IMG/VR virus record: IMGVR_UViG_2703718802_000005
Origin: a virus
Lineage: Duplodnaviria > Heunggongvirae > Uroviricota > Caudoviricetes
DNA: 7,660 nt
Strand: one strand, 5' to 3'
Shown here: piece after piece, positions 1 to 5,603 of the stretch
Layout of the letters: each line of letters begins with the position of its first letter
Numbering within the stretch: position 1 is the first letter of the stretch
Notes under the pieces: model-generated
What the model was told of the DNA's origin: nothing
The model's input: only the letters and a program-made list of their open reading frames with translations
Databases searched by the model: none
Program-made: the position numbers and the translations under genes

Positions 1-1439
1 CTGGAGATTCAGGGGGCCAGTCTACTGCATTACGTGCTAATACAAAGCTCTTGAGAATCTTTAGAGAACAAAGAAACGCGGATGAACCAGAGCTTATTAT
101 TAAAGAATCTACATTTCCCCAACTCACTAATTCTGATCTTACAGATGCGCTTAATATTATGTGCCATTTATACAATGGTTTTGATGAAGGAAATATCAGC
201 CTGAAAACCTGGGGGGCGATGCAAGAAGTACAGACAACATCAACCTTTATCAGCCCGAGACCGGGAACCTGGAAAACAACTGAACTGGCAAAGTTTGTAG
301 AAGATGATTTATTTAATATTCTGACTGAATGTAAAGCCTGGAGTTCACCAATTCCAGCAGAAGCCCGACAGGGGTATTGCCACCAGGATCTCTCTGTTGC
401 ACACTCCTGCACCTCAGAGTTACTGGCACACCTGAATCAATACCATGAAATTGATGAATCAGCAATACTTGCCAGAGTTATTAGTATGACGATTAACGGA
501 TTCTACAAGAAAAAAAATACAGACCTTACGGAATGGCTATCCCCTTTTAAAGAGGAACATAAAATATTCAGGGATTGTCCGGAGCAAAATACCGGGGATG
601 TAATCAGACTGAAAGAGCAACTGTTGAAAACAGGACGTACAGAATTCGTGAATAATTTGTGTCAAGTCGCCAACTGGTATGAAATTAAGTCAATATACGA
701 TGAATACGTCCGTCTTTATGCCAATGAAATCATTAGTTGGTTCAACAAAACCATGGAGTATTTTAAACCAACAGATTTTATCCGATATACATGGAAATTC
801 GCAACAGTTACTCCGGATAAAGATACAGAAACTGGGCATACAACTGCATGGGAAAAGGATTATTGCCAGATAACCATACAACGTGATGAACTTCTGAGGT
901 TGATTCACACTAATACCCTTCAGGATGCAGTAATTTATCTTTGTCATTGTCTGCAGGAGAAATACAAGAAATCATCCCAGAATGAGACAGAGTTTCCAGG
1001 AATAAAACCTCCGGCATCAGAGAGTGAAATTAATATAACAGATAATTTTGAATTTCATTCTCTTATGGAGCTCAGTAAAGATAATGAGAAGCGGCTGGAA
1101 ACATTTCAAAAATGGTATGAAAAAAATAAAGTTTTGTTAGAAAGTCATAAACAAAAACGAACAGAGAAGATTGACGTTGCCGTACGACTTGTAGGGCTGA
1201 AAGCCTATGATCTGCATGAAGGGATTCCGGATAGGCCAAAACGAAAAGTTAAAGATGGCATAAATGAAGACATCAAAGCCGATACCAGTTTACGCCTGTC
1301 AAAGACAAATATAAGTGATACGTCGCTAAACCGTTATCGCCGCACTGTTAAGGAGATTATCAATAACGAAATCGACGTATTCCTGTTGGAACAGAAGAAA
1401 AAAATAAAAGATTTCCCTACAGTGAAGATAGAGATGTGA
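1..1439 (+). CDS. Hypothetical protein, C-terminal part (462+ codons); probably 5'-truncated by the window edge
   Basis: Track ORF 51..1439. The same frame (codon phase from nt 3) has no stop back to nt 1, and the first start-like codon at 51 is TTG with no Shine-Dalgarno, so the gene most likely begins upstream of the window. AT-rich (roughly 35-40% GC by eye) with a Lys/Glu/Asn-rich product; no catalytic motif recognised. Stop TGA at 1437-1439 is followed by an intrinsic terminator. Confidence 0.6.
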   Translation, partial: GDSGGQSTALRANTKLLRIFREQRNADEPELIIKESTFPQLTNSDLTDALNIMCHLYNGFDEGNISLKTWGAMQEVQTTSTFISPRPGTWKTTELAKFVEDDLFNILTECKAWSSPIPAEARQGYCHQDLSVAHSCTSELLAHLNQYHEIDESAILARVISMTINGFYKKKNTDLTEWLSPFKEEHKIFRDCPEQNTGDVIRLKEQLLKTGRTEFVNNLCQVANWYEIKSIYDEYVRLYANEIISWFNKTMEYFKPTDFIRYTWKFATVTPDKDTETGHTTAWEKDYCQITIQRDELLRLIHTNTLQDAVIYLCHCLQEKYKKSSQNETEFPGIKPPASESEINITDNFEFHSLMELSKDNEKRLETFQKWYEKNKVLLESHKQKRTEKIDVAVRLVGLKAYDLHEGIPDRPKRKVKDGINEDIKADTSLRLSKTNISDTSLNRYRRTVKEIINNEIDVFLLEQKKKIKDFPTVKIEM

Positions 1440-2159
1440 TTCGACCTTTATGGGGAAAATGCCTGACCGGACAGTAACTCCCTGAGGGGATAACAGCCCG
1501 GTTATCCCCTTTTCGTTATGCCTCGGTATACCGGAGTTCCAGGGACACGAGACAATCGGCAAATTATGCGGCTTTTCCATTAACAGATTCGGCCACAAGA
1601 ACAACACCATGTTTGTTTCGATCAGGATGTTCACTCCAGATTTCTGATTCAGGGATACTTCCCCATCATAGCAGATCCGATCACCATCAAACGGATAATA
1701 CCGTGCGGAATTTGTATCTAAGATAAACACCTTAAGATTCGTTGAACGACGCGCTATATGCTGCCAGAGGGCTTTACCTCCTTCATATTGCTCGTTATCA
1801 CTTAATAGTATAACGCCTGCTTTTGTGGCTATTGTTTCATAAACAAACGTAGCAAGGCCAACATCACGTACAGCGCCATCGACAACAATCCCTTCAATCT
1901 GAGCAACGTCCTGTTCTTCCCAGAATTTCCGGGCAAACACCCCTTCAAGCTGTGAACGACGCTGAAGCTCCAGAGTGGCAACAACCTTATGGCGAATATC
2001 ACCATCAATAACAGAAGGTGCAGCTTCGATTACCGCAGCGAACGGAGTCTTTGGATCCCAGATGATCTGGTAAAGCACGCCCTGAATAGTTACTCCATCC
2101 AGTATCGAAAAACGGCGGGCTACAGTAGCAGGGGAGTAAGACATTGGAATGACAGCCAT
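1326..2159 (-). CDS. Hypothetical protein (277 codons as encoded); C-terminal ~40-75 codons doubtful
   Basis: Track ORF; ATG at 2157-2159 with only a weak upstream AGG. Body is moderate-GC. The 3' end overlaps the plus-strand ORF by 114 nt and reads through its terminator hairpin, translating to a low-complexity Phe/Leu-rich tail (EIFYFFLLFQQEY), which looks like non-native coding. An R-x-x-G-x-A motif (RDVGLA) could hint at a GNAT-like fold; this is a weak guess. Confidence 0.45.
   Translation of the reverse strand: MAVIPMSYSPATVARRFSILDGVTIQGVLYQIIWDPKTPFAAVIEAAPSVIDGDIRHKVVATLELQRRSQLEGVFARKFWEEQDVAQIEGIVVDGAVRDVGLATFVYETIATKAGVILLSDNEQYEGGKALWQHIARRSTNLKVFILDTNSARYYPFDGDRICYDGEVSLNQKSGVNILIETNMVLFLWPNLLMEKPHNLPIVSCPWNSGIPRHNEKGITGLLSPQGVTVRSGIFPIKVESHLYLHCREIFYFFLLFQQEYVDFVIDNLLNSAAITV
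1486..1517 (+). terminator. Rho-independent terminator downstream of the 1..1439 ORF
   Basis: Perfect 9-bp stem GGGGATAAC (1486-1494) / GTTATCCCC (1501-1509) with 6-nt loop AGCCCG, followed by TTTTCGTT. On the minus strand the same hairpin is not followed by a T-run, so it is unidirectional. Confidence 0.8.
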
Positions 2160-2686
2160 TTTATGGCCTAAAATTTGAAAACATTAGTATCAATACTGAC
2201 CTCATCAGTCTGAGCATATATTGATAAAGTTTTTATGTTTACACTCAATAAATACCTTGCCAAACAACTAATATCGATGTCTACATTGCCATTCGACATG
2301 CTTACAATTTTTGTCAACAAGAAAGTGAATTTATATCAACGGTAAGAAGTAAACACGAGGACACCAAAACTAAATGTACACACTTTTGTGCTTTGTGTCC
2401 CCTGTGTGTACCCAAATGACAAACTGCAAGGAAATCTAGGCACACACTTATCTAACTTATTGATTTAAATGGTGCGATAATAGGAACAATACACATAGGC
2501 GATAAGCTTTGTTTTTGTTGCCTTTTTTATTGTTCATTTTTTATAGATACCCCCAAAAGTACCCCCATATCTTTTTCCGCCCCTGAAATTTGGTTGTTAT
2601 TCATACAGCATATCAGGCGGTAACGCTCTCCCTTTAACCCACTTATTGTATGATAGTGCTATCCCACAATAAGGAATCAGCCAGCC

Positions 2687-3046
2687 ATGAGAATGACCAG
2701 CCGTAAAAAAGAGATACTCAGTTATTTTGAGCCGGATAACCTAGAATGGGTGACAGGTGAGATTGGTGCGCCGCCGTTCGATGTGTCGGGCGTGGCCTAC
2801 CTGCTTCATGGCATGGTGTCGTTCGATAAGCGCCACCAGCTCGAATCAACCCGGCGCACACTGGAAAGCATGGTTGCTGGTGGACTGCTTGAGCGGGTGA
2901 CAGTGTATGAATCGCGTCAGGTACGGCGCGGCGGTGAGACTAACGCAACGGTCGTGCGCTACGGTTTACCCGGTCACTGCGCTGTTATGCGCGATACTGG
3001 CGGCGCTGATAACGCAATATCAGGCGAATACATGCGGGTCAGTTAA
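2687..3046 (+). CDS. Hypothetical small protein (119 aa), possible winged-helix DNA-binding protein
   Basis: Track ORF; ATG 2687 preceded by AAGGA about 12 nt upstream. Clearly more GC-rich than its flanks by eye. Segment TRRTLESMVAGGLLERVTVYE resembles a recognition helix plus wing (pattern-based guess). Stop TAA at 3044-3046 overlaps the convergent gene by 8 nt. Confidence 0.45.
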   Translation: MRMTSRKKEILSYFEPDNLEWVTGEIGAPPFDVSGVAYLLHGMVSFDKRHQLESTRRTLESMVAGGLLERVTVYESRQVRRGGETNATVVRYGLPGHCAVMRDTGGADNAISGEYMRVS

Positions 3047-3581
3047 GAGCCTGCAATCTGTCGTTAATGTTGTTCAGGTCGTAAACCCGGCGTTCAATAT
3101 CCAGCATCAGGAAATCGTGGATCTCGGCCTGTTCAGGATTATCAGACTCTCTGGCCTGTAAGAGCAATTCATTGTAACCATGCAAACCACCCGAATTTTC
3201 CGCCGGGGTAGTGCCCTTCCCGCGCAAACAGCTAACAGGCTGGATACTGGTATCATGTGTTTGCTTCTCCAGCACAACAAGGCAATCCCACCAGTCGCCA
3301 AAGTCATACGTGTAAACCAGCTTGTCACCCTCATTCTGGAGCGCCGCCCATAGTGGCGTGATTGCCGCGTTACCCATGCTTTCATCCTCACCCCATACGC
3401 GATACTCGCTACCTGGATCACCTTTACGCCCTTTCTCGAACATATACAGGTGTTCGTCATTCCAGCCAAAAGCTAACTGGATCACGGCATGAAGTTTACT
3501 AAAGGGGATTTGCTCTGGAACCAGCACACGCCGCCATATTGGTGGTTTGCTGTCTCGGATGGTTATCTTTATCTGGTACAT
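3039..3581 (-). CDS. pRiA4b ORF-3-like family protein (PF07929-like), 180 aa
   Basis: Track ORF; ATG at 3579-3581. N-terminal IKITIRDSKPPIWRRVLVP and central YTYDFGDWWD match the IWRR / YDFGDxW signature I recall for the plasmid pRiA4b ORF-3-like family. No strong Shine-Dalgarno; lies 43 bp downstream of the toxin-candidate gene on the same strand. Confidence 0.75.
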   Translation of the reverse strand: MYQIKITIRDSKPPIWRRVLVPEQIPFSKLHAVIQLAFGWNDEHLYMFEKGRKGDPGSEYRVWGEDESMGNAAITPLWAALQNEGDKLVYTYDFGDWWDCLVVLEKQTHDTSIQPVSCLRGKGTTPAENSGGLHGYNELLLQARESDNPEQAEIHDFLMLDIERRVYDLNNINDRLQALN

Positions 3582-3624: not shown

Positions 3625-4059
3625 CTACTGACCAGGATAGAGCTGATGTGCCGGGTCAAGCCAGACAATATGGAATACATTACCGATGAAAAATCCATGT
3701 ATGCGACCATATTCATTGCGCGATATGGCAAATTGATAAGGTGTATAACTCTGAAACTGTTCATTCAAATGCTGAAATCCCTTAGGTTCAGATGTAGTTT
3801 GCCAATCAATCGGATGTGACTTCAACGAACCACCGCGATCGGTGGTGAACTCTCGTTCAGTCATAGTGGAAAGGTCTTTGAGGCGGTCTAACACCTTGCA
3901 AAAATAAACAGGATTCTGAGCGCTGAAAGTAAATTTCTCATGCGCCGCATCGATATACCGAAAAGAAAAGTTGATGGTCGTTATGCCTGAACCTGTTCCC
4001 CCAGGCACTATTTTTGTTTGCGAGGGTGCAATCTTCGACGCCCTGATTCTTTTCGCCAT
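3625..4059 (-). CDS. Toxin-candidate partner of the Panacea-domain antitoxin-like gene; 144 aa, fold not recognised
   Basis: Track ORF; ATG at 4057-4059 lies 2 nt after the TAA stop (4062-4064) of the upstream same-strand gene, a translationally coupled antitoxin-then-toxin layout. No family recognised by eye; notable C-terminal segment GRIHGFFIGNVFHIVWLDPAHQLY and N-terminal Gly-rich PGGTGSG. Confidence 0.6.
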   Translation of the reverse strand: MAKRIRASKIAPSQTKIVPGGTGSGITTINFSFRYIDAAHEKFTFSAQNPVYFCKVLDRLKDLSTMTEREFTTDRGGSLKSHPIDWQTTSEPKGFQHLNEQFQSYTPYQFAISRNEYGRIHGFFIGNVFHIVWLDPAHQLYPGQ

Positions 4060-4061
4060 AT

Positions 4062-4517
4062 TTAGGAAGCCATCGAACGATAAAACTCAGCCGTTACACT
4101 TTTATCAATAACATTCTTGCACGGCGCATCTGATGGAACCCCTTCACGGGCCTCCAGCCACGGCTTTTCTTGGTGCGTCATCTGCTCCAGCTCATAAGCT
4201 GTATAACCGCCAAATACCTCATAGATTTCCTTTAGATGCTTTGACACATTCGCAGGTAACTCAGGGCAGGCAATCTCTTCGTCTATTGAGCGCCATTTGT
4301 AATCTGCAAATCTGGTATACAAATCTCTGGCTACAGGGCCATGTACCCATGCTTCAAACTTGTCAGCAACCAGTTCTTCGCCATCATTCAGCGCCATGAA
4401 CCAAGCATCAGCATAGAACACCATTTTTTGCAGTTTCAGCGGCGTCATAACATCCCCATGCTCTTGAGCAAAGCAAAGCAGGTAATCCGCTACGCTGTTA
4501 AGGGTTGTAACTGCCAT
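4062..4517 (-). CDS. Panacea (DUF4065) domain protein, PanA/SocA-type antitoxin-like, 151 aa
   Basis: Track ORF 4062..4748 in frame; start placed at ATG 4515-4517 because AGGAG sits 8 nt upstream, whereas the ORF-opening ATG at 4748 has no ribosome-binding site. Product contains TPLKLQKMVFYADAWFMAL and FEAWVHGPVARDLYTRF, matching the conserved core I recall for Pfam PF13274 (DUF4065/Panacea; GepA-like 'phage-associated protein'). Confidence 0.8.
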   Translation of the reverse strand: MAVTTLNSVADYLLCFAQEHGDVMTPLKLQKMVFYADAWFMALNDGEELVADKFEAWVHGPVARDLYTRFADYKWRSIDEEIACPELPANVSKHLKEIYEVFGGYTAYELEQMTHQEKPWLEAREGVPSDAPCKNVIDKSVTAEFYRSMAS

Positions 4518-4838
4518 TATCCAATCTCCTGCCGTATGTTTTCGTCTATAACTGTCCACTACCGTTAATAATCGCATATAACCACGGGTATTGCCCATCG
4601 TAAAATGCCATTTAAAGATTCTGCGTGATGGCTCACCATCCACCGCGCAAGATACCCGGTGCGTTTGGCTGATAATCCGCAATTTGGTTGAAACCGTCCT
4701 GGAAACCTCAAGTTTGGAAACCAGCGACTTGCATCGTAGCTTTGCCATTCGGCGGTCATAGTTACTGCTATATCCCTTTATTGGCGAGACCTGCGAGAGG
4801 TTTTGTTGTTCGAATATATAAAGGTGAATAAAGGTAAT

Positions 4839-5321: not shown

Positions 5322-5603
5322 CTACCTTTGCCTCTTGCCGCCATTTAACCGGAAGGCGTTACCGTTCGGTTGCGCTATCCCCATGCGGTGTTGCGTTTCG
5401 GTAACAGCTTTATGCAGGTCGCCAAATTCCTCAACCTTCACGGGCGGGCGCTTCACGTTCTCCAGACACGTTTCACGGCGGCGCTTTATCCATTCCCGAT
5501 CATCGTCCTCGCTGCATAACAGCATGACTTCCATCCATCGTGCGGCAGCTCTCCGGTATAGCCCTTTTGACTCCAGCTCTTCAGCTTTCCTGTCCCTTAT
5601 CAT
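5322..5603 (-). CDS. PerC-family transcriptional activator-like protein (93 aa)
   Basis: Track ORF; GAGG 5 nt upstream of ATG (5601-5603). Segment AEELESKGLYRRAAARWMEVM matches the conserved core I recall for PerC/Pch-family regulators (Pfam PF06069) found on enterobacterial mobile elements. The opposite-strand ORF 5206..5625 is judged spurious. Confidence 0.7.
   Translation of the reverse strand: MIRDRKAEELESKGLYRRAAARWMEVMLLCSEDDDREWIKRRRETCLENVKRPPVKVEEFGDLHKAVTETQHRMGIAQPNGNAFRLNGGKRQR

Follow-up and report, generated by a model that had tools for sequence, protein, structure and literature searches.

Proteins of the phrog_7522 family, such as WP_047643993.1 and gp016 of phage SJ46 (YP_009293473.1), are 198 amino acids (aa) long, end in ...VNGKAA and are the closest described counterparts of the gene treated here. 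That gene appears as a minus-strand open reading frame (ORF) of 277 codons in the window, by which we mean the whole stretch of 7,660 nucleotides (nt) that was analysed (IMG/VR record IMGVR_UViG_2703718802_000005, Caudoviricetes). Residues 1-167 of the 277-aa product are 88-98% identical to the intact family, and the gene holds the same convergent position beside a gene for a protein of five hundred-odd residues as it does in several genomic island lineages. The window product differs in that the last 31 residues of the family are replaced by 110 unrelated ones. By its predicted fold the family may be placed in the GNAT (GCN5-related N-acetyltransferase) superfamily, from whose members Hat1 (1bob) and AtaT (6gtp) the 198-aa protein differs by a sequence identity of 7-17% and by an N-terminal β-rich extension.

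Two further described systems resemble the locus. The region between the two genes is comparable to the intrinsic terminators found between convergent genes, with a GC-rich 11-bp stem and a U-tract just past the stop of the plus-strand gene; it differs from them in having no U-tract on the minus strand, and the minus gene may terminate poorly. The nearest annotated relative of the disrupted copy is the pseudogene FS611_RS01275 ('hypothetical protein, frameshifted') of Escherichia coli RM10410, which shares with the window the gene itself, a 1-nt deletion and an island next to a tRNA-Thr gene. RM10410 differs in that its neighbouring plus-strand gene has kept a run of eight A residues (A8) and is intact (543 aa), no copy of the insertion sequence IS2 is present there and the shifted ORF is 266 codons long. 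We conclude, with a probability of about 0.95, that the 277-codon ORF is likewise an ordinary pseudogene, derived by frameshift from a GNAT-fold accessory gene of 198 aa, and that it does not mark an insertion junction.

Frameshift and native end of the minus-strand gene

The features of the minus-strand gene are as follows.

1326..2159, minus strand: ORF of 277 codons; residues 1-167 native, residues 168-277 an out-of-frame tail without homologues
1564..2159, minus strand: true minus gene, 596 nt here and 597 nt when intact; 198-aa GNAT-fold protein of the phrog_7522 family (WP_047643993.1 in ET565)
1659..1660: frameshift site of the minus gene, TT in the window and TTT in the other genomes examined; on the minus strand GGGGAAGT vs GGGGAAAGT
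1567..1659, minus strand: native last 31 codons (SIPESEIWSEHPDRNKHGVVLVAESVNGKAA), undamaged and now in another frame
1564..1566, minus strand: native TAA stop of the minus gene

Aligned with 11 homologous proteins, the 277-aa product loses similarity after Glu167, while the homologues share a further 31 residues and then end. The cause is visible in a three-way DNA alignment of the window, RM10410 and ET565, in which the window and RM10410 are both without one A of the coding-strand GGGGAAAGT. The ET565 homologue is annotated as an intact 597-nt gene whose translation is the 198-aa protein WP_047643993.1. Putting one T back at 1659-1660 of the window yields a full 198-aa protein with a C-terminus identical to that of the homologues, and even in the unrepaired window the native C-terminus SIPESEIWSEHPDRNKHGVVLVAESVNGKAA and its TAA are still encoded at 1564-1659 in another frame. 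The lesion is already known from a public genome, as the Prokaryotic Genome Annotation Pipeline (PGAP) labels the copy in RM10410, the closest complete genome, 'frameshifted'. The original prediction had offered a pseudogene as one of two possibilities and an alignment of the 277-aa product as one way to decide, with a tail fully shared by homologues as the sign of a native overlap. That alignment bears out the pseudogene, since the tail is unshared, similarity stops at residue 167 and the native end lies at 1564.

The lost segment is a regular part of the protein. The family comprises 157 homologues, mostly of 198 aa, or of 208-210 aa where the start has been called further upstream. An exhaustive profile-free search gave 280 clusters at 50% identity, mostly of 195-220 aa, and its matches extend to query residue ~190, so that the lost segment belongs to the conserved domain. 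Residues 168-198 hold a conserved IWSEHP motif, the near-invariant W175 and the last predicted β strand (186-192). The tail that replaces them is without homologues and is not conserved across lineages.

The proposed course of events is as follows. A short purine run of the coding strand has lost one nucleotide, GGGGAAAG having become GGGGAAG (window 1659-1660), and the frame shifts after Glu167. The ribosome would then bypass the native TAA at 1564-1566 and continue through the spacer and the terminator hairpin into sequence antisense to the 3' end of the neighbouring gene, up to a chance TAG at 1326-1328. Judged from the predicted structure, such a frameshift should destabilise the fold and would lead to loss of function.

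In a second lineage of alleles (P0100, 216 aa), the GNAT-fold gene has undergone its own 1-nt deletion in the same purine tract (GGAAAAGC), at L016:3001-3651 and in L017 (handles of this form denote loci and contigs used for comparison). Here too, another frame still encodes the native C-terminus. Independent deletions in one purine tract suggest a small mutational hot spot.

The function of the intact protein can be approached through its predicted structure. An AlphaFold2 model based on an 81-sequence alignment is confident (predicted local distance difference test, pLDDT, 92; predicted template modelling score, pTM, 0.88) and has the α/β fold of GNAT proteins; viral structural relatives are annotated 'NAT_SF domain'. 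Ahead of a long helix lies the loop R98-D-V-G101-L-A103, which is invariant in close relatives, with only G-x-A kept as the majority in the deep alignment. It can be compared with GNAT motif A, the acetyl-CoA pyrophosphate loop, defined as Q/R-x-x-G-x-G/A. No curated GNAT sequence model in Pfam or NCBIfam matches the 198-aa protein, and Pfam Acetyltransf_1 is matched weakly by four of the 81 distant relatives (best E = 6e-4). Among the PHROGs the protein matches only phrog_7522, annotated as of unknown function, and a profile search of PDB sequences returned no credible relative of known structure. The intact protein is thus predicted to have a GNAT fold and is probably an acyl-CoA-dependent transferase.

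The neighbouring plus-strand gene and the origin of the overlap

The minus-strand ORF (1326..2159) overlaps the plus-strand ORF at 51..1439 by 114 nt, at 1326-1439. The features that bear on this overlap are listed here.

25..1477, plus strand: remainder of the plus gene; complete family members have 543-545 aa; an IS2 copy cuts off or interrupts the 5' end and a frameshift lies near the 3' end
1398..1404: second frameshift site, A7 in the window and A8 in 115 of 117 genomes; makes a premature TGA at 1437-1439
1475..1477, plus strand: native TAA stop of the plus gene
1..24, minus strand: left inverted-repeat end of IS2, matching the reverse complement of bases 1-24 of K-12 IS2A at 24 of 24 positions; abuts the truncated plus gene
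1484..1511, plus strand: terminator-like hairpin, an 11-bp stem-loop followed by TTTTCGTT on the plus strand, within the native 86-nt spacer

The plus gene has been damaged independently of the minus gene, at both of its ends. In pairwise comparison RM10410, L73 and ET565 carry A8 where the window has A7. With A8 the plus gene extends to the TAA at 1475-1477 and its C-terminus reads ...QKKKNKRFPYSEDRDVIRPLWGKCLTGQ; the change from A8 to A7 moves the stop from there to 1437-1439. Homologues from Serratia, Klebsiella and Vibrio, at identities as low as 33-40%, keep the native C-terminus, NKRFPYS...PLW.KC, and retain its P, S and PLW.K columns. Because this C-terminus is conserved, the window ending IKDFPTVKIEM is a frameshift artefact. 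The A7 allele is found in two of the 117 complete genomes, HB37 and STEC379, and the HB37 copy is flagged 'frameshifted' by PGAP. At the other end of the gene an IS2 copy ends at base 24. Only the terminal 24 bases of the element lie inside the window, its body being outside. A pattern search among the fetched loci gave no match for this end, which was identified by comparison with K-12 IS2A, and the junction between IS2 and the plus gene is common to contigs L013-L015 from other assemblies.

The 114-nt overlap therefore results from two independent frameshifts taken together. When both deletions are undone, what is left is a plain convergent pair with stops at 1477 and 1564 and an 86-nt spacer that holds a conserved hairpin, without any overlap. 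The 277-codon ORF, the 114-nt overlap and the passage through the hairpin, as originally described, are all present in the sequence, as is the Phe- and Leu-rich character of the tail, the last 40 residues being rich in Leu, Phe and Val. What does not hold is the geometry, which had taken the plus stop at 1439 at face value, that stop being a frameshift artefact and the native one lying at 1475-1477.

The hairpin, previously placed at 1486-1509, is confirmed and extends over 1484-1511 in a consensus scan. It begins 7 nt past the native plus stop and consists of a GC-rich stem followed by a T-run on the plus strand only; folded as RNA it reaches -20.6 kcal/mol (z = -3.8 against shuffles). Among four lineages compared, including the window, the stem is kept in ET565, L010 and L016 despite different loops, and L016 shows a compensatory change (GATAGC/GCTATC vs GATAAC/GTTATC in the window). 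Stem conservation and compensatory change fit a putative functional terminator of the plus strand. At gathering thresholds no Rfam family was matched, and ARAGORN predicted no tRNA in the window.

The length of the tail is contingent and not conserved. In ET565 the shifted frame ends at codon 226, in L73 and RM10410 at codon 266 and in the window at codon 277. The window tail reaches 277 only because the second 1-nt deletion, at 1398-1404, shifts the minus frame past a double stop. The last 38 codons run antisense to the plus gene in codon register, and there a stop can arise only opposite a TTA, CTA or TCA sense codon. A conserved overlapping ORF in the shifted frame was considered as a candidate and rejected, as its end point varies among ET565, L73 and RM10410.

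Both deletions are rare. The first 2.5 kb of the window have some match in 987 of 5426 complete E. coli genomes, 257 of which cover at least 80% of the query. The minus-gene alleles were counted with a 61-mer centred on the deletion site, matched by 224 complete E. coli genomes. The TT allele is exact in one of these, RM10410; the other matches listed span 62 nt, with the extra base, and none ranked between. The exact 277-aa product, which needs both deletions, occurs on five contigs. The three shown come from GCA_000752175.1 and from assemblies of the read sets ERR6099529 and ERR13865230. Their identity to window positions 1-2485, the IS2 end included, is 99.9%. As both deletions stand on contigs from at least three separate samples, the mutations are real and inherited in a lineage. 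The likely order of events is that TTT became TT first, a change common to RM10410, and that A8 became A7 and IS2 inserted afterwards.

Competing explanations

Taken together, the indels, the intact C-terminus in another frame, the rarity of both alleles and their recurrence in independent assemblies are directly observed parts of the frameshift explanation. Against it has been set a recombination or insertion junction, at which the minus gene lost its native 3' end to an incoming AT-rich segment with the plus gene, so that the tail would be sequence from beyond the breakpoint. Several observations would agree with a junction. There is a step in base composition, from 38.7% GC in the plus gene (25-1477) through 54.7% in the spacer (1478-1563) to 46.0% in the minus gene (1564-2159), and a step in identity to the island locus L010, from 53-87% to 90-100% at ~1560. 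Moreover, each gene is found alone in phages, the 198-aa gene in the P1-like SJ46 and RCS47 and the ~540-aa gene in P2-like Klebsiella prophages. However, the divergence step lies at the native stop and not within the gene, the convergent pair and its hairpin recur in at least three diverged island lineages, window positions 25-2485 are collinear with the other E. coli genomes aligned, and a single inserted base restores the gene. Since the native 3' end, with its 31 codons and stop, is intact at 1564-1659, a junction is ruled out as the cause of the read-through, and we regard this reading as very improbable. The claim that the native end had been replaced thus fails. The change in base composition on which it partly rested is present, but modest and not sharp. 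The idea of a heterogeneous origin survives in part, as a mosaic boundary at ~1560, which explains the GC step and not the read-through; this boundary lies at an intact gene end and truncates nothing.

A sequencing or assembly artefact, in which the organism has both genes intact and the missing homopolymer bases are mistakes, is just as improbable. Homopolymer indels are typical assembly errors, both lesions are 1-nt deletions in homopolymer runs, and over 25-2485 one substitution and two indels separate the window from RM10410 (a further gap, at position 24, results from how the IS2 junction aligns). Yet the TT allele also stands in the complete genome of RM10410, and three of the five contigs with the 277-aa product come from separate samples and agree with the window as described above. 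Still less probable is a functional read-through, that is, a programmed or phase-variable shift that toggles the 198-aa enzyme with a longer isoform or an off state. It would account for the independent 1-nt deletion in the same purine tract of the other allele lineage (P0100, P0117; L016, L017), but the tract is just 3-5 nt long, with a run of 2-3 nt, well below the length of known contingency repeats. In addition, the allele is confined to the one complete genome in 224, the tails vary in length and sequence across lineages, no slippery heptamer is evident on reading the site and the neighbouring gene is broken as well.

Some points weigh against the frameshifted pseudogene. The stop-free run from codon 167 is 111 codons long, which about 0.2% of mononucleotide shuffles reach (shuffle mean 17.6 codons), and a run so rare could hint at something more, although its length varies by lineage. 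Two of the three real differences between the window and RM10410 are indels, the class expected of errors, although both of those within the 277-aa ORF recur in assemblies of separate samples. Finally, we infer rather than observe both the loss of function and the continued ending of transcripts at the hairpin.

Island context and implications

The convergent pair with its hairpin is found in at least three diverged island lineages, whose large partner proteins are 57-68% identical to that of the window. In two of these lineages an integrase adjoins the 198-aa gene, and it adjoins the pair in L010-L012. DNA identity to L010 is 53-87% over the plus gene and the spacer and 90-100% for 1561-2160, with nothing past 2160. 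Window positions 1561-2160 correspond to L010:6722-7318, where 194 of 198 aa are identical, and homology stops abruptly at both gene ends. From this pattern the GNAT-fold gene looks like a cassette exchanged by recombination.

In the phages SJ46 (L004 3465-4097) and RCS47, the full 198/210-aa gene is located after tail-tube genes. P1 and P7 hold a counterpart to residues 4-66 only, ~44% identical and annotated PmgF or Upf52.1 (P1 pmgF, NC_005856 53170-53364). P1 pmgF may be a short relative or a remnant of the 198-aa family; a literature search for 'pmgF' found only unrelated uses of the string. The ~540-aa family occurs in P2-like Klebsiella prophages (L007-L009; L007 5001-6623) as an opposite-strand insert between a tail gene (Phage_tail_S) and baseplate genes, without a GNAT-fold partner. 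The 545-aa protein had no match in PHROGs and none by tblastn against the phage collection, and neither protein had a significant match in Pfam, NCBIfam or PADLOC.

The remaining features lie to the right of the pair.

2470..2485, minus strand: remnant of a tRNA-Thr 3' end, 16 nt without one C; right edge of the island (attachment-site repeat)
3039-3581: second-element gene of the pRiA4b ORF-3 family
4062-4748: second-element gene with a Panacea/SocA domain; a 144-aa neighbour lies at 3625-4059
5322-5603: second-element gene of the PerC family

Similarity to RM10410 ends at 2485, and a second element, 99.9% shared with other E. coli strains, begins at ~2453. This arrangement indicates two tandem islands beside tRNA-Thr. 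The 310 nt at 2160-2469, which separate the tRNA-Thr remnant from the start of the GNAT-fold gene, are AT-rich (33% GC) and hold no annotated gene. They are similar neither to the integrase-bearing islands L010 and L016 nor to phage SJ46, and tblastn of the window with the L010 integrase found no integrase remnant at 2160-2470. Other island genes are also annotated as frameshifted or partial, namely the large partner gene in L73 (L003 1218-2848), YfjI in HB37 (L006 2545-3977) and DUF3987 fragments (L002 4571-4795), and the whole island seems to be in decay.

A described setting for cargo genes is the defence hotspot of P4-like satellites, in which the cargo lies between psu and int (PMC9122126). 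At the present locus no psu is among the annotated neighbours and PADLOC gave no match; an integrase does stand beside the pair in L010-L012. The hotspot paper, which deals with P4 and P2, mentions neither GNAT nor the present locus (PMC9122126).

Beyond annotation hygiene the finding has little significance. Both the 277-aa and the 462-aa ORF call for annotation as frameshifted pseudogenes, and it would be wrong to take the 114-nt overlap for an overlapping-gene arrangement or an island boundary. More generally, two independent homopolymer deletions can together give rise to a long but spurious ORF running through a terminator. A mild by-product is the description of two uncharacterised families that are borne by phages and islands, one of them with a confident GNAT fold that no curated sequence model captures. 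It is conceivable, though we consider it unlikely, that the 198-aa gene is a self-contained mobile cassette and that the gene, its ~540-aa orphan partner or the pair acts in conflicts between phage and host or between phages. If this were true, the recurrent deletions in the purine tract would stem not from neutral decay but from selection for loss or from a mutational hot spot.

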